From NCBI GenBank assembly GCA_019338205.1, contig GCA_019338205.1_4761.1: a stretch of DNA of 64,000 bases, one strand, 5' to 3'. How positions within the stretch are numbered: the first letter of the stretch is position 1; each line of letters starts with the position of its first letter. Below, in pieces: positions 30,507 to 35,579 of the stretch. The translations under genes were made by a program, and so were the position numbers. This DNA comes from a phage. The notes below the pieces were generated by a model. It did no database searches. It saw only the letters and a list, made by a program, of their open reading frames with translations, and had not been told where the DNA came from.

Positions 30507-30820
30507 TGCATGTATTTGCTGTATGTTATCGTGATAAAGACGGATTCTTTCAATACTCAGTGGACGCGAAGGGTCGCGTCCTAACTTGCGAAACACATGA
30601 TGCTGCGTTAGCGTCAATGTGTGATCAGATAGATTATTGTGAGAGTCTATTGGCAGGTGAACCGAAATACAAGGTTGTACCTAAACGAAAATTTGGCATA
30701 ATCCGGTCTTCTGAAATTGTTCGGGATGGTATCGAATATAAAATTCCTGAATATGAAAAAGAACGGGTACGGCGAGAACTCAATACTATCTGTGTTCGCA
30801 AGGTGAGGATTTTAGGATAA
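30506..30820 (+). CDS. hypothetical protein
   Basis: 104-aa ORF directly upstream of dda. Confidence 0.55.
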   Translation: MHVFAVCYRDKDGFFQYSVDAKGRVLTCETHDAALASMCDQIDYCESLLAGEPKYKVVPKRKFGIIRSSEIVRDGIEYKIPEYEKERVRRELNTICVRKVRILG

Positions 30821-32211
30821 TGAGCAGAGTATTAACTTTCGATATGTTAACAGACGGACAAAAACATGCTTTTGATGTTCTAATGAAACGCATTGAACAA
30901 AAGAAGCATACAACTGTCCGTGGTGCGGCGGGTACTGGTAAAACCGCAATGATGAAATTCATTGTTCAGGAAATGGTCCGTCGTGGTGTAACTGGTGTGG
31001 TTTTGGCAACGCCTACCCACCAGGCTAAAAAAGTTTTGAGTAAAGCGGTAGGTCGTCAAGCATTTACTTTACATGCACTACTGCGACTAAACCCGACCAA
31101 CTATGAAGATACTCAAGTATTTGAGCAAAAAGATACTCCTAAGCTAGATGATGTTCAGATCATCATTGTTGATGAAGCGAGTATGGTCGATAAGAAACTA
31201 TTTGATATTCTCATGAAGAGTATCAACGGTCGAATTGTTATTATTGCCGTGGGTGATCTGTACCAGTTACGACCAGTTGATCCGAGCGGTGCAACGTCGA
31301 TCTCTCCTTTCTTCACCGATGAAAGGTTTCAGAATGTAGAACTTACAGAGATTAAACGATCTAATGCGCCAATAATTGATGTGGCGACCGCTGTCCGTAA
31401 TGGTAAATGGGTATTCGAAAAGCAGTGCGGTAACGAGGGTGTATTCCATAGCTCAACTCTGCCGGAGTTTATGAAGCATTATTTCGAAACCGTTAAAACG
31501 CCGGAAGACCTTCTAGAAAACCGTATTCTGGCCTACACTAACAAGAGCGTCGAAAAACTCAATGAAATTGTACGTAAGCGCGTTTATAACACCGATGAAC
31601 CAGTGATTGTAGATGAAATTCTGGTTACTCAGGAACCATTGATCGAATATCTGCGAGATGAACGCGGGAAGAAGATTCCCAATGTTATTTTTAACAATGG
31701 TGAGATGATCCGAGTTAAAGAGGTCATCCCGCGTGAATTTACATTACGTTGCACGGGGGTAGATCCGCAACCAGTTTTAGGCTATACTCTGAAAGTGGAA
31801 AGCGTCGATGATGACGAAGACAAAGAAATCCTAAATCAGAAAGTTGGTTTAGATGCAGTCGGAATCACTACAGATAAACCGGATTTAGTAGAAATCAACA
31901 TTCTGACAGAACAACGCCAGAAGAACATTTTCTCTATCTATCTGAATACGGTCGCCGGACAATATCGCGAAATGAAGAAAGAGAATCCAAAATTTAAACC
32001 AGATTGGGATTCCTTCTGGACGATGAAACGTATGTTCTTGAATGTAAAAGCATTACCAGCTTGCACCATTCATAAGTCACAAGGGATCAGCGTAGACCGC
32101 GTGTTCCTGTATACTCCTTGCATGTGTACAGACAATGTTGACTTTGAATTGGCAATGCAGTTATTATATGTGGGTGTTACCCGTGCGCGGTATCGAGTAG
32201 ACTATATTTGA
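30820..32211 (+). CDS. dda: SF1 DNA helicase Dda
   Basis: Walker A GAAGTGKT, IIIVDEASM, FNNGEMIRV, and TPCMCTDNVDFELAMQLLYVGVTRARYRVDYI closely match remembered T4 Dda. Confidence 0.93.
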   Translation: MSRVLTFDMLTDGQKHAFDVLMKRIEQKKHTTVRGAAGTGKTAMMKFIVQEMVRRGVTGVVLATPTHQAKKVLSKAVGRQAFTLHALLRLNPTNYEDTQVFEQKDTPKLDDVQIIIVDEASMVDKKLFDILMKSINGRIVIIAVGDLYQLRPVDPSGATSISPFFTDERFQNVELTEIKRSNAPIIDVATAVRNGKWVFEKQCGNEGVFHSSTLPEFMKHYFETVKTPEDLLENRILAYTNKSVEKLNEIVRKRVYNTDEPVIVDEILVTQEPLIEYLRDERGKKIPNVIFNNGEMIRVKEVIPREFTLRCTGVDPQPVLGYTLKVESVDDDEDKEILNQKVGLDAVGITTDKPDLVEINILTEQRQKNIFSIYLNTVAGQYREMKKENPKFKPDWDSFWTMKRMFLNVKALPACTIHKSQGISVDRVFLYTPCMCTDNVDFELAMQLLYVGVTRARYRVDYI

Positions 32212-32221
32212 GGAAATTATT

Positions 32222-32389
32222 ATGATTATGCGAAGTATCCCAGAATTTGACGAAGTGACGGTACGCCGTCACAATGGAACTGTTACCATGTGTTTTAGTT
32301 GGGGTCATTATGGATGGAACGTATCCGGCGACAGTGAAGCTGAATGTATCAATAAAATGATCGAATATTTCACTAAGCGAGGGTTTTGA
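32222..32389 (+). CDS. small hypothetical protein (55 aa), not on the ORF track
   Basis: hand translation MIMRSIPEFDEVTVRRHNGT...ECINKMIEYFTKRGF; C-terminus lies in the direct repeat. Confidence 0.4.
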   Translation: MIMRSIPEFDEVTVRRHNGTVTMCFSWGHYGWNVSGDSEAECINKMIEYFTKRGF

Positions 32390-32400
32390 TATGGCTAATG
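32343..32400 (+). repeat. direct repeat copy 1 (about 58 bp)
   Basis: TGTATCAATAAAATGATCGAATATTTCACTAAGCGAGGGTTTTGATATGGCTAATG, about 85 percent identical to copy 2. Confidence 0.6.
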
Positions 32401-32567
32401 AAGCCAGAAGAACGAAGAGTTTAGATACGCGGTGTAAGCCAAAAATGACAAACGAACAGTTACAGGATTTTTTGGCTGTAGCTCTTAATTCGTCAAAAAA
32501 ATCTCGTGACTACCAAGCTGTATGTATCAATAAAATACCAGAACATTTCATTAAGCGAGGGTTTTGA
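32391..32567 (+). CDS. small hypothetical protein (58 aa), not on the ORF track
   Basis: hand translation MANEARRTKSLDTRCKPKMTNEQLQDF...VCINKIPEHFIKRGF; C-terminal tail paralogous to the previous ORF. Confidence 0.4.
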   Translation: MANEARRTKSLDTRCKPKMTNEQLQDFLAVALNSSKKSRDYQAVCINKIPEHFIKRGF

Positions 32568-32596
32568 TATGGTTGTTATTAATGATATGGCTAATG
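32519..32596 (+). repeat. direct repeat copy 2
   Basis: TGTATCAATAAAATACCAGAACATTTCATTAAGCGAGGGTTTTGATATGG...ATGGCTAATG. Confidence 0.6.
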
Positions 32597-32811
32597 TAAT
32601 ACATCTACAATCAATTGTCGCGTGGAACCGTCAAAAGATTCATTGTGACTATGCACAACATGTAATTAATTTTAACAACAAAGTACGCGCATACATGGCA
32701 ACGGACCGACTGTTAACCGATAATTACGGTAACGGGATTATTGATTGTAGCGGTTTCATTCTGGATAAAAACGATCTGGAGTTGTTCCGGCATATCGCGG
32801 AGGATATTTAA
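32569..32811 (+). CDS. hypothetical protein
   Basis: track ORF 32506..32811 trimmed to ATG 32569 (MVVINDMANV...). Confidence 0.5.
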   Translation: MVVINDMANVIHLQSIVAWNRQKIHCDYAQHVINFNNKVRAYMATDRLLTDNYGNGIIDCSGFILDKNDLELFRHIAEDI

Positions 32812-32812
32812 A

Positions 32813-33481
32813 ATGCTTCCAGTGGATTTAATGATTGACTTTGAAAGTTTAGGTTATCCGCCTGATGGGGCGGTTATCAATATGGCGGCAATCGGATTTA
32901 AAGAAGATCCGCACAATCCACCTACATTTAAAGAACTGATTGACAATTCCTTTCTGGTAAAATTTGATATTCCTTCCCAGAAAGGTGTAAGGGTGTTTGA
33001 TCATGGTGTGGTTGAATGGTGGAAGAATACCGCCTCAGAAGGCATGAGAAAGCAATTAATCACAAATGGTACGGAAGTATCAACTAAAGAAGGTTTAGCG
33101 CGTTTTAACGCATTCTGTGAAGCCGTAGGAGTAGATCCGGTTAAATCCGTATTGTGGTCACGCGGTAATGCGTTTGATATTCCGTTACTAGTTGATATGA
33201 TCCGCCGTGCACACAATACACGAGAGACGTTCAGCCTTGAGCCTGTGCGATTCTGGAATATCCGAGATGTTCGCACCGCCATTGAGCGTACATTGATGCA
33301 TCGCGGGATGTGTGAGTGTCCGTTACCAATGGGTACGCTAGATGGTTTTATCGCACATGATGCAATTCATGATTGCGCTCGCGATATTCTTATGCTAATC
33401 TATGCACAACGTTATGCTATGGGTCTGGAAGACCTACCAGAAAATCCAGATCCAAATTCAGTTAAGAAACAAAGGGGATAA
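32813..33481 (+). CDS. dexA: exonuclease A (DEDD family)
   Basis: DFESLGYP, WSRGNAFDIPLL, GTLDGFIAHDAIHDCARDILM, YAMGLED match remembered T4 DexA; ATG 32813. Confidence 0.92.
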   Translation: MLPVDLMIDFESLGYPPDGAVINMAAIGFKEDPHNPPTFKELIDNSFLVKFDIPSQKGVRVFDHGVVEWWKNTASEGMRKQLITNGTEVSTKEGLARFNAFCEAVGVDPVKSVLWSRGNAFDIPLLVDMIRRAHNTRETFSLEPVRFWNIRDVRTAIERTLMHRGMCECPLPMGTLDGFIAHDAIHDCARDILMLIYAQRYAMGLEDLPENPDPNSVKKQRG

Positions 33482-33482
33482 T

Positions 33483-33656
33483 ATGCCATTATACGATTAT
33501 TCTTGTGAAGAACACGGTCAATTTCAGAAAATCCGCAAAATTTCCGAGCGTGAAAAGGCAGAATGCCCTGAATGTGGTAAAGAATGCAAACAGGGATTAA
33601 CTGCCCCGCGCGGGATTAATGGCGGGTACTATGATAAAAATGTGCGCGTGTCATGA
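33483..33656 (+). CDS. FmdB-type zinc-ribbon protein (57 aa)
   Basis: MPLYDYSCEEHGQF...CPECGKECKQ; track ORF 33402..33656 trimmed to ATG. Confidence 0.5.
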   Translation: MPLYDYSCEEHGQFQKIRKISEREKAECPECGKECKQGLTAPRGINGGYYDKNVRVS

Positions 33657-33665
33657 GTCATATAC

Positions 33666-33694
33666 TTGACAATCACTCAATTTTTAATATGATT
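33666..33694 (+). promoter_or_regulatory. possible sigma70-type promoter upstream of gp39
   Basis: TTGACA 33666-33671, weak -10 (TATGAT) about 17 nt downstream. Confidence 0.3.
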
Positions 33695-33755
33695 GTTGCA
33701 GCCGTCTTTGTGGCGGTTGCAGTAAGTTATGGTTATGTTATGAAGAGGTTTAATA

Positions 33756-35579
33756 ATGAGTGAGTTCCGCATTTTATCGGATCGTGAACATGTTCTTAAG
33801 CGTGCAGGAATGTACATAGGATCAACAACTTACGAAGAACATCAACGTTTCCTGTTCGGTAAATGGACAAAAATTTCATATGTTCCTGGACTGGTTAAAA
33901 TCATTGATGAGATCATCGACAACTCTGTAGACGAGGCGATTCGCACTAATTTTGAATTTGCCAATGTGATTAGCGTCGATATCCAAAACAATATTGTTAC
34001 GGTAACAGACAATGGTCGCGGTATTCCTCAACATATGGTTACTACCCCAGAGGGCACGCAGATTCCGCAACCTGTAGCCGCATGGACACGAACAAAAGCA
34101 GGGTCTAACTTTGATGATACCAATCGATTAACGCAAGGGATGAACGGTGTGGGGTCGTCGTTGTCAAATTTCTTTAGCGATTGGTTTACTGGTGTGACCT
34201 GTGACGGCGAAACAGAAATGACCGTTCAATGTACAAACGGTGCTGAAAATATCACATGGTCATCGAAACCATCAAAATTGAAGGGAACAAAGGTTACATT
34301 TTGCCCAGACTTCGACCACTTCGAAGGTTATATGATGGACAACTCTGTTTTAGATATTGTTCATGATCGTCTGCAATCATTGAGCGTAATATTTCCTAAG
34401 ATCACGTTTAAGTTTAATGGTAAACGTATTGTTAGTAAGTTCAAGGATTATGCTAAACTATACAATGATGATCCGTTTGTCATTGAAGATAAAAACTTTT
34501 CACTTGCCCTAGTTCCGGCGGTCGAGGGAGAAGGTTTTAAATCAGTATCCTTTGCTAACGGTCTGTTTACCAAAAACGGGGGAACACACGTTGATTATGT
34601 GACAGATGATCTTTGTGAAGAGATTGTAAAACGAATCAAGAAAGAATATAAGGTTGATGTTACTAAAGCTGCGGTTAAATCTGGATTGACCTGTATTCTT
34701 ATTGTTCGTGAATTGCCTAACCTTCGTTTTGATTCACAGACAAAAGAACGCTTGACTAACCCGACTGGTGATATCAAGCGTCATATTGATCTTGATTTTA
34801 AAAAGCTGGCTAAAGTCATTGCTAAGAAAGAAAACATTATCATGCCTATTATTGCTGTAGTCCTGGCACGCAAAGAGGCAGCAGATAAAGCGGCAGCGAC
34901 TAAAGCAGCAAAGGCAGCAAAACGGGCTAAGGTAGCAAAACACGTTAAAGCTAACCTTATTGGAACTGACGCAGAAACTACCCTGTTTTTGACGGAAGGT
35001 GATTCCGCGATCAACTATCTGATCTCTGTACGTGATCAAGATTTACATGGCGGTTTCCCGTTGCGAGGTAAAACTCTTACAACGTGGGAACAACCGGAGG
35101 CAAAGATCGTTAAGAACGCCGAAATTTTTAACATCATGGCGATCACTGGCTTGCAATTTGGTGTTGATGCATTGGAAGTTATGCAATACAAAAATATTGC
35201 GATTATGACCGACGCTGATACTGACGGGATCGGGTCTATTAAACCTAGTCTGATCTCTTTCTTTGCACGTTGGCCTGAATTGTTCGAAGATGGACGAATC
35301 CGGTTTATCAAAACACCTATTATCATTGCTGAACCAAAGAAAGGTGGTGATGTTCGATGGTATTATGACCTAGAAGATTTCGAGAACGACCGAGATAATA
35401 TCAAAGGTTACAACATTCGATATATCAAAGGTTTAGCATCGCTCACAGAATCAGACTATCATCGCGTGATCAACGATCCTGTCATGGAGATCATCACGTT
35501 ACCGGAAAACTATAAAGAGCTATTCGATTTGCTCTATAGTGAAGATGCAGATCAGCGCAAAATTTGGATGCAATCATAA
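33756..35579 (+). CDS. 39: DNA topoisomerase II large subunit, unsplit gp39+gp60 (GyrB-like)
   Basis: 607 aa; GHKL ATPase motifs (DNGRGIP, GMNGVGSS) and TOPRIM (LTEGDSA, MTDADTDG); the C-terminal 150 aa correspond to T4 gp60. Confidence 0.93.
   Translation: MSEFRILSDREHVLKRAGMYIGSTTYEEHQRFLFGKWTKISYVPGLVKIIDEIIDNSVDEAIRTNFEFANVISVDIQNNIVTVTDNGRGIPQHMVTTPEGTQIPQPVAAWTRTKAGSNFDDTNRLTQGMNGVGSSLSNFFSDWFTGVTCDGETEMTVQCTNGAENITWSSKPSKLKGTKVTFCPDFDHFEGYMMDNSVLDIVHDRLQSLSVIFPKITFKFNGKRIVSKFKDYAKLYNDDPFVIEDKNFSLALVPAVEGEGFKSVSFANGLFTKNGGTHVDYVTDDLCEEIVKRIKKEYKVDVTKAAVKSGLTCILIVRELPNLRFDSQTKERLTNPTGDIKRHIDLDFKKLAKVIAKKENIIMPIIAVVLARKEAADKAAATKAAKAAKRAKVAKHVKANLIGTDAETTLFLTEGDSAINYLISVRDQDLHGGFPLRGKTLTTWEQPEAKIVKNAEIFNIMAITGLQFGVDALEVMQYKNIAIMTDADTDGIGSIKPSLISFFARWPELFEDGRIRFIKTPIIIAEPKKGGDVRWYYDLEDFENDRDNIKGYNIRYIKGLASLTESDYHRVINDPVMEIITLPENYKELFDLLYSEDADQRKIWMQS

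Follow-up and report, generated by a model that had tools for sequence, protein, structure and literature searches.

A direct repeat between dda and dexA in a Krischvirus genome as a probable scar of plasmid gene capture

How a direct repeat came to lie within a compact run of small phage genes, and where the sequence enclosed by its two copies originated, are the questions raised by a locus in a 64,000-nt stretch of phage DNA (contig GCA_019338205.1_4761.1 of GenBank assembly GCA_019338205.1; this whole stretch is referred to here as the window). Between dda (30820–32211) and dexA (32813–33481), the plus strand of the window carries three tightly packed small ORFs (open reading frames), encoding 55, 58 and 80 residues. 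The region is 95–99 % identical to Krischvirus phages, the RB49 group of T4-like coliphages, with ECD7 as the top match (98.6 %), and the three ORFs are homologues of those annotated as ORF010, ORF009.1 and ORF009 in phage Phi1. The answer that we favour, with a probability of about 0.82, is that the repeat is a target-site duplication resulting from the microhomology-mediated capture, by a Krischvirus, of the 5′ part of a plasmid gene.

The repeat and its unoccupied allele

A repeat search identified two direct copies on the plus strand, at 32337–32394 and 32515–32572, each 58 nt long, identical at 51 of 58 positions (88 %) and spaced 178 nt from start to start. A sequence-only reading of the window had placed a direct repeat of ~58 bp between dda and dexA, with copies ~180 bp apart, at 32343–32596; the location is accurate, although the true start of the repeat lies 6 nt further upstream, at the hexamer AAGCTG. 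The CTAATG with which that reading closed each copy is also present, but after copy 2 it is parted from the match by an 18-nt stretch (32573–32590) that has no counterpart after copy 1. The repeat includes a 5′ block, TGTATCAATAAAAT, and a 3′ block, TAAGCGAGG.TTTTGATATGG. The 21-mer at the 3′ end of the repeat occurs exactly twice in the window, against 0.00 occurrences expected from 100 shuffles, and the exact 14-mer TGATATGGCTAATG is likewise found twice, at 32387–32400 and 32583–32596.

Each copy comprises the last 16 codons of a small ORF (A-x-CINK…F-x-KRGF) with its TGA stop codon, a GAGG Shine–Dalgarno sequence and the ATG of the next ORF, with stop and start arranged as TGA-T-ATG. Copy 1 closes ORF010 (32222–32389; GAGG at 32379–32382, TGA at 32387–32389) and opens ORF009.1 (32391–32567; ATG at 32391–32393), while copy 2 forms the tail of ORF009.1 (GAGG at 32557–32560, TGA at 32565–32567) and opens ORF009 (32569–32811; ATG at 32569–32571), which lies downstream of the junction. 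The two copies terminate neighbouring ORFs, each in the reading frame of its ORF, with the 55-residue ORF010 product ending in ECINKMIEYFTKRGF and the 58-residue ORF009.1 product in VCINKIPEHFIKRGF. The shared tails are therefore paralogous, as had been described; the ORFs that bear them are otherwise unrelated, and the tail is native to ORF010 only. This is indicated by the ORF010 allele of phage KFS-EC, which ends in CINSMIDHFTKRGY in a genome without ORF009.1, and by Kagunavirus-type homologues of ORF010, which align through residue 53.

The similarity of ORF010 to proteins of Kagunavirus-type and Raoultella siphophages, one of which is annotated as NinH, amounts to ~34 % identity over residues 8–53. 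Sequence searches of Pfam, NCBIfam, PADLOC and PDB returned nothing significant for ORF010, ORF009 or ORF009.1.

Database matches to the region fall into two classes, one of 1201 bp with three small ORFs and the other of 1023 bp with two, and the difference between them is exactly 178 bp. Phi1 is annotated with ORF010, ORF009.1 and ORF009, and RB49 with ORF010 and ORF009 only; when the two types are aligned, RB49-type genomes lack precisely one repeat unit together with the body of ORF009.1. The single-copy arrangement, for which a check in related genomes had been proposed, thus exists in RB49, JSE, Cognac, FL20 and others. Among GenBank phage records, the cassette is present in 18 and absent from 34, and the deeply diverged ORF010/ORF009 pair of KFS-EC is also without the insert. 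The repeat is a true duplication that arose via recombination. Polarization of the indel with outgroup genera was attempted and abandoned, since the two candidates (L008 and L009) carry unrelated small ORFs between dda and dexA and are hence uninformative.

Plasmid homology and the proposed capture

Protein searches with ORF009.1, one of them covering 5.8 billion sequences, returned Krischvirus variants only, and an exhaustive HMMER scan added to these a single weak match, the repeat protein P0010. This 535-residue metagenomic protein, composed of six repeats of ~90 residues, is 40 % identical to ORF009.1 over residues 2–35 (E 2.5e-7, a value boosted by the repeats); the match may hint at a helix-turn-helix-like motif or may be due to chance.

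At the nucleotide level, a blastn search of 5,426 complete E. coli genomes with the ORF009.1 body gave two matches, both on plasmids of ~3.1 kb (88.1 % over 126 nt, E 6e-36), and no chromosomal match in the same genomes. The strong plasmid match and the lack of an E. coli chromosomal one argue that the body of ORF009.1 is not phage-derived. The matched plasmid gene encodes a 50-residue hypothetical protein, MANEVRRTKRLDTRRKPKMTNEQLLAFLAAGINASKNRDYQADITLEAHH, and on the E. coli plasmid it lies 36 nt upstream of a 172-codon gene annotated as a YafO-family type II toxin, the product of which scores 35.2 bits against Pfam PF13957 (YafO_toxin; cutoff 25). Gene contexts were compared in 15 metagenomic or draft-genome sequences (with three alleles of the small gene), two RefSeq plasmids and one Serratia plasmid. 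In 17 of these 18 contexts, which represent four small-gene alleles, the 50-residue gene is located 36–39 nt upstream of, and co-oriented with, a PF13957 gene of 169–172 codons. The remaining context is that of the Serratia plasmid, in which the downstream ORF (93 residues) is cut at a Tn3/blaTEM-1 insertion. The small plasmids often carry Rop, which identifies them as ColE1-type, as well as a divergent HTH_36 gene upstream, and the exact 50-residue protein is encoded on ~777 contigs, mostly of 2–5 kb.

The intergenic region of the plasmid module has a feature of its own. In pWP4-S18-ESBL-07_7 (L030, 257–293), a 10-bp hairpin, GAAUCCCUGU…GCAGGGAUUC, lies between the 50-residue and YafO-like genes, with the AUG of the toxin at the end of its 3′ arm. 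The predicted fold of the 76-nt hairpin region has a z-score of −3.65 relative to shuffled sequences, and the same arms are found in the P0014-type allele; on the strength of this folding model, the hairpin may control toxin translation.

The homology between phage and plasmid has sharp limits. From the ATG to AAGCTG, the window and pWP4 are identical at 115 of 127 positions (90.6 %), and ORF009.1 is a chimera, intact in the window, whose residues 1–43 are homologous to residues 1–42 of the plasmid protein and whose residues 44–58 are the duplicated ORF010 tail. In a reciprocal search with the whole plasmid, Krischviruses were matched only by plasmid nt ~2473–2606, and the only other plasmid segments found in phages were ColE1 ori-like matches in unrelated or vector-contaminated records. 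The unambiguously plasmid-derived core occupies 32395–32514 on the plus strand, and the homology spans 32382–32520 when both microhomology junctions are included.

At the left junction (32382–32400), phage GGTTTTGATATGG, followed by CTAATG, corresponds to plasmid GGTTTCGATATGGCTAATG. The homology starts ~10 nt upstream of the ATG, where the phage reads GGTTTTGATATGGCTAATG, and the common start motif is GGTTT(T/C)GATATGG. At the right junction, the hexamer AAGCTG (32515–32520) constitutes both the end of the sequence in common with the plasmid gene (…TACCAAGCTG, followed there by ATATCAC) and the first bases of copy 2, and the same hexamer opens copy 1 at 32337–32342. The homology ends at …GTGACTACCAAGCTG, beyond which the plasmid continues with ATATCACTTTAGAAGCCCACCATTAA and the phage with (T/A/C)ATGTATCAATAAAAT…, the tail of ORF010. 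The limits of the homology coincide with those of the repeat, on the left with the 3′ end of copy 1 (…GATATGG) and on the right with the 5′ end of both copies, and because the plasmid homology ends exactly where the repeat does, the repeat is best read as a target duplication.

A second candidate for the left crossover lies inside ORF009, where TGATATGGCTAATG at 32583–32596 (plus strand, codons 5–10) ends in 13 nt, GATATGGCTAATG (32584–32596), that match the start of the plasmid gene exactly. This internal match also accounts for the second CTAATG element of the sequence-only reading. The locus thus displays all four defining features of microhomology-mediated insertion with target duplication, namely a donor, homologies at the junctions, a flanking duplication and an unoccupied allele. 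The description of the repeat as a duplication or recombination scar holds as far as duplication by recombination is concerned; the duplication was not a stand-alone event, as it flanks the captured 5′ part of a plasmid gene.

In T4-type phages, replication is primed by recombination, and recombination takes place at short homologies. T4 join-copy recombination is described, in the passage of PMC2839356 that cites Singer et al. (1982), as needing only short homology. We infer a mechanism of this kind, either a template switch or join-copy recombination, and a single founding event in which the first ~127 nt of the ColE1-type enterobacterial plasmid gene, from the start codon to codon 42 of 50, would have been captured. 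DNA synthesis or strand exchange would have exited the phage at GGTTTTGATATGG, the junction of the ORF010 stop and the ORF009 start, followed the plasmid gene and returned to the phage sequence at AAGCTG, a position 58 nt upstream of the exit. Alternatively, the exit may have been at GATATGGCTAATG inside ORF009, followed by an 18-nt slippage deletion between two TGATATGG octamers. The stretch from re-entry to exit would have been copied twice, and with it the last 16 codons of ORF010, the stop codon, the ribosome-binding site and the next ATG. The captured fragment would have gained a phage ribosome-binding site, an in-frame tail of 15 residues and a stop codon, and ORF009 would have retained its native translational-coupling junction, which would make the insertion seamless. 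Since the duplication supplies the tail, the stop and a coupled ribosome-binding site, the insertion would have been non-polar in a tightly packed early operon. The repeat now serves as a substrate for phage homologous recombination, by which the 178-bp cassette is precisely lost and the copies undergo gene conversion.

Several points weigh against this account. Two break-join events would look the same as template switching. The left junction is ambiguous, being either a 12/13 match at the gene boundary or a 13-nt exact match with an 18-nt deletion, and every sampled allele carries the 18-nt deletion that the second option needs. The nearest sampled plasmid allele differs from the insert of the window by 12 substitutions and a 3-nt indel; therefore, either the true donor, which would carry QDFLAVALNSSKKS, is unsampled or the phage copy has diverged rapidly. 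Moreover, in the metagenomic Krischvirus k141, the insert is 98.4 % plasmid-like even though the repeat copies differ at 4 of 58 positions, and this genome needs more than a single old capture, be it later re-conversion by plasmid sequence or a renewed capture at this site. Finally, most two-ORF alleles fit either an ancestral empty site or a deletion with a 3′ crossover.

The adjacency and similar lengths of ORF009.1 (58 residues) and ORF010 (55 residues), together with a period of 178 nt that is close to gene length, could instead suggest that ORF010, or the ORF010/ORF009 junction, was duplicated in tandem and that the copies then diverged, with the ends kept alike by gene conversion, a process that does occur between the copies in phage Makalu. 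However, outside the last 16 codons the two genes have no DNA or protein similarity, each body has external homologues of its own, and the body of ORF009.1 has a plasmid homologue (E 6e-36) ending exactly at the repeat, which makes this origin extremely improbable.

A second alternative comes from the same phage genus. Arbiol et al. (2010) listed ORFan009.1 among the Phi1-specific ORFans, outside the hyperplastic regions and with no discussion of its flanks, and reported that an ORFan lying between direct repeats can leave the genome as a circle (PMC2839356). The locus could accordingly be a mobile cassette in which an ORFan moves as a mini-circle between promoter/stem-loop (PeSL) repeats. It shares with PeSL shuffling in RB49 and Phi1 the topology of an ORFan between direct repeats, a single-repeat empty allele in sister phages, and loss, possibly also regain, by recombination (PMC2839356). 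The repeats here nevertheless differ in kind, being a coding tail with a stop codon, ribosome-binding site and start codon, made de novo at one site rather than belonging to a dispersed family, and only two copies are present in the window. They contain neither a sigma-70-like promoter nor a stem-loop terminator: no promoter-like site was found inside either copy (the nearest are at 32138–32167 and 32582–32611), and the 32200–32800 interval is free of terminator-like sites. The source of the ORFan, which the earlier paper treats as homologue-less (PMC2839356), is accounted for by plasmid homology. A PeSL cassette is hence highly improbable, and the suggestion that the repeat marks a module boundary is not borne out in the PeSL sense.

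Capture from a plasmid agrees more closely with templated insertion and illegitimate recombination, as represented by fork stalling and template switching (FoSTeS), microhomology-mediated break-induced replication (MMBIR) and T4 join-copy recombination, in which donor sequence likewise lies between short homologies, a recipient stretch is duplicated and an unoccupied allele exists. To our knowledge, no case has been described in a T4-type phage in which the duplicated target supplied a tail, a stop and a coupled ribosome-binding site that kept both ORFs translatable.

Direction of transfer, divergence and continuing recombination

Plasmid to phage is the best-supported direction of transfer and, from the comparison of alleles, strongly favoured. 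The E. coli and Serratia plasmid alleles share 78.7 % nucleotide identity, with a synonymous divergence (pS) of ~0.6 and a ratio of non-synonymous to synonymous divergence (pN/pS) of 0.15–0.18. The phage alleles are 89–98 % identical to the pWP4-type allele of E. coli and 68–79 % identical to that of Serratia; their changes relative to the plasmid are mostly non-synonymous (pN/pS ~1–2.4), and they lack the last 8 codons of the plasmid gene. The alleles from GenBank phages are 89–93 % identical to the pWP4 gene and all contain an extra codon, while two metagenomic Krischviruses with the same junctions are closer to it, namely VALL22 (170 kb; 94.5 %) and k141 (171 kb, L034; 124/126, 98.4 %). The direction follows from four observations: the phage copy is truncated, with duplicated phage sequence on either side, the plasmid alleles are full length, more diverse and under purifying selection, the phage alleles nest with the pWP4-type allele of E. 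coli, and their pN/pS relative to the plasmid is ~1–2.4.

Similarity alone has no direction, and phage relatives of the protein family exist in Gamaleyaviruses, so the plasmid gene could conceivably have been acquired from a Krischvirus. Such a reverse transfer is very unlikely, as the flanking of the phage stretch by duplicated phage sequence is a signature of insertion and the last 8 plasmid codons are missing from it. In addition, the more diverse plasmid alleles are toxin-paired wherever the toxin gene is intact, and the phage alleles nest within one plasmid clade and occur in only a subset of one phage genus. The small multicopy plasmids of propagation hosts commonly contaminate phage libraries, which raises the question of whether plasmid reads were mis-joined into phage assemblies. 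The same insertion with the same junctions is, however, shared by at least 15 genomes that were sequenced independently and come from several countries, as well as by the 170-kb metagenomic contigs, with allele-specific divergence of 2–11 % from the plasmid, and the probability of an assembly or contamination artefact is practically negligible.

The duplication had been described as recent, which is doubtful for the window, where the insert is ~9 % off the nearest plasmid allele and the two repeat copies are 12 % diverged from each other. Between the window and k141, the synonymous divergence of dda and dexA is ~0.18–0.21, and in relation to this the 11 % difference between their inserts is about neutral. 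The changes that separate the two inserts are split unevenly relative to the plasmid allele (12 vs 2), a lopsidedness that may mean either that the k141 body was later re-converted by a plasmid copy or that the GenBank clade has changed at an accelerated rate.

The distribution of polymorphisms indicates that the repeat is still recombining. In the two-ORF phage PHB13, the only tail matches copy 2 of phage 011D4 at every base, down to the A4-to-A5 frameshift, yet is preceded by the sequence context of copy 1. PHB13 has therefore lost the cassette secondarily through a crossover within the 5′ portion of the repeat, an event that truncated its ORF010. Most other two-ORF alleles have a copy-1-type tail. 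In Makalu, the copies are identical at 57 of 58 positions and copy 2 contains the copy-1 middle, GATCGAATAT, a pattern that identifies gene conversion between the copies. Those of VALL22 are one substitution and one indel apart, a GAGG(G/T) polymorphism is found in either copy in varied combinations, and each of two haplotypes of the ORF010 body occurs both with and without the cassette.

ORF009.1 is decaying in many phages. Six of the 15 alleles carry a frameshift, each caused by a different homopolymer indel. A hotspot is the A7 run at 32495–32501 (plus strand), which has become A8 in ECD7 and A6 in Makalu; k141 has A5 in place of the plasmid-type A6. Across 24 genomes, dda, ORF009, dexA and the 39.2-like gene are intact wherever they are anchored, and ORF010 is intact in 23, being broken only in PHB13 by its frameshifted tail.

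Variation of other kinds surrounds the cassette. In KFS-EC (L027, 2486–2909, corresponding to 32222–32811 of the window), ORF010 has a pS of 0.65 and 67 % amino acid identity inside nearly identical dda and dexA genes with pS values of 0.09 and 0.007, respectively, and on these divergences the ORF010/ORF009 pair is a local mosaic replacement of just two small genes. Codons 6–10 of ORF009 (32584–32598) are unusually variable in Krischviruses, with D/N, M/V/I, A/S and N/K alternatives (NDMAN, NNVAN and NDISK), and this variation is independent of the presence of the insert; a linkage of GATATGG vs AATGTGG at codons 6–7 to the insert, suggested by the first five genomes, was rejected with 27. The 13-mer GATATGGCTAATG is carried, for example, by the empty-site phages ELT3 and JK32. 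A 729-nt endonuclease-like ORF upstream of the topoisomerase large-subunit gene is present in Skers, JK32, JEP8 and PHB13 (L012, 3360–4088; L023, 3182–3910; L026, 3183–3911; L028, 3862–4590) and missing from the window (~33650–33760), which is probably a presence/absence polymorphism of a homing endonuclease.

Possible role of ORF009.1 and significance of the locus

Orphan antitoxin-like genes can serve phages in counter-defence, as exemplified by T4 Dmd, which counters RnlA and LsoA. The 50-residue plasmid protein is presumed, from the gene order, the conservation of the pair and purifying selection, to be the antitoxin of the YafO-like toxin. It has no match in Pfam, NCBIfam, PADLOC or PDB and belongs to no recognized antitoxin family (such as Phd/YefM, to which YafN belongs), and its AlphaFold2 model consists of one helix at residues 21–36 with a predicted local distance difference test score (pLDDT) of 67, a score too low to justify a fold search. 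Known partners of YafO toxins include both Phd-type and unclassified proteins (PMC3141249). If the plasmid protein is an antitoxin, ORF009.1 is the kin of an antitoxin-position gene that stands without an adjacent toxin gene, its neighbours being ORF010 and ORF009.

One possibility, which we regard as somewhat short of an even chance, is that the chimeric ORF009.1 acts in counter-defence as a decoy for the plasmid protein; if ORF009.1 has a role at all, this is the most likely one. A wider form of this idea, held just as tentatively, is that the 50-residue protein founds a new antitoxin family for YafO-type toxins on multicopy ColE1 plasmids, that its N-terminal ~32–43 residues would neutralize the toxin, and that lytic coliphages have repeatedly stolen or kept this piece as an early decoy against abortive infection. 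The putative decoys would then, with the same reservation, comprise Krischvirus ORF009.1, an N4-like gene and a Gamaleyavirus protein of 57–61 residues, and the repeat would be the visible scar of one such theft.

The N4-like gene is found on three metagenomic contigs (L049, 3001–3150; L050; L051), where 97 nt, corresponding to codons 1–32, are 92.8 % identical to the P0014-type plasmid allele. The captured segment has its own AGGAGG site (AGGAGGAGG) and adjoins a homologue of N4 Gp1, while the sequence beyond it is unrelated; neither target duplication nor flanking homology was found at this site. The capture was independent of that in Krischvirus, as a different plasmid allele was involved and flanking homology is lacking. 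The Gamaleyavirus protein (…TRLKPVMTNEQLQEFIDAGLKQSKAR…) is conserved (L029, 553–732, 'nithesis'; L048, 3001–3183) and encoded in the N4-type early region near Gp1 and Gp2 homologues; in an hhalign comparison with the plasmid family, it reached a probability of 97.2 % (E 2.8e-11) with 51 % identity over 37 columns.

There is, in our estimate, an even chance that ORF009.1 is a neutral passenger without function, in which case its origin by capture and duplication would still be right. The six frameshifted alleles among 15, set beside neighbours that are intact apart from the ORF010 tail of PHB13, and the pN/pS of ~1–2.4 relative to the plasmid donor are consistent with neutrality. Most Krischviruses are without the gene, at least one lineage (PHB13) has lost it secondarily, and the plasmid gene occurs in only 2 of the 5,426 complete E. 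coli genomes. On the other hand, the 5′ part of the same gene family was captured independently by an N4-like phage, the Gamaleyavirus homologue is conserved in the early region, five of the six frameshifts spare residues 1–36, including the only predicted helix (21–36), and one phage allele is 98.4 % plasmid-like.

Two known systems invite comparison. In PhiTE-F (Blower et al., 2012; PMC3475682), a lytic myovirus likewise took up, through recombination with a resident plasmid, the antitoxin side of a plasmid toxin–antitoxin locus, toxIN, with repeats at the mosaic junctions. ToxI is, however, an RNA antitoxin, and its acquisition was selected in the laboratory via pre-existing pseudo-ToxI homology, whereas here a protein-coding fragment with a presumed antitoxin role was captured in nature through microhomologies of 6–13 nt. 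AdfN, which acts against DarTG1 (PMC11257639), is similarly a small gene of the early region of T4-type phages, antitoxin-related or a mimic, and without an adjacent toxin gene. In contrast to ORF009.1, AdfN is an enzyme with demonstrated activity that is only distantly similar to DarG (PMC11257639). ORF009.1 has up to 98 % DNA identity to its plasmid counterpart and its acquisition is visible, while the gene is truncated, carries a foreign tail and is often frameshifted, and its role is putative.

The locus represents a new and well-resolved instance of processes of known kinds. Within the literature searched on Krischvirus and antitoxins, and on YafO and ColE1 or small plasmids, nothing was found on the plasmid module or its capture. 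The origins of ORFans are a standing question in phage genomics, and here the origin of an ORFan of T4-type phages, recorded in the literature as homologue-less, can be resolved to the base. The mechanics of the capture are visible in two microhomologies and a 58-nt duplication that provides the tail, the stop and a coupled ribosome-binding site. Public data hold all stages, from the empty site through near-pristine (98.4 %), diverged but intact, frameshifted and gene-converted alleles to a deletion scar, and the locus lends itself as a compact natural model for how virulent phages gain and lose genes. With the source gene in the antitoxin position of a plasmid YafO-type module and relatives in two other coliphage lineages, it also offers a testable hypothesis in which a new toxin–antitoxin pair may serve the plasmid against phages and the phages carry a counter-measure to match.

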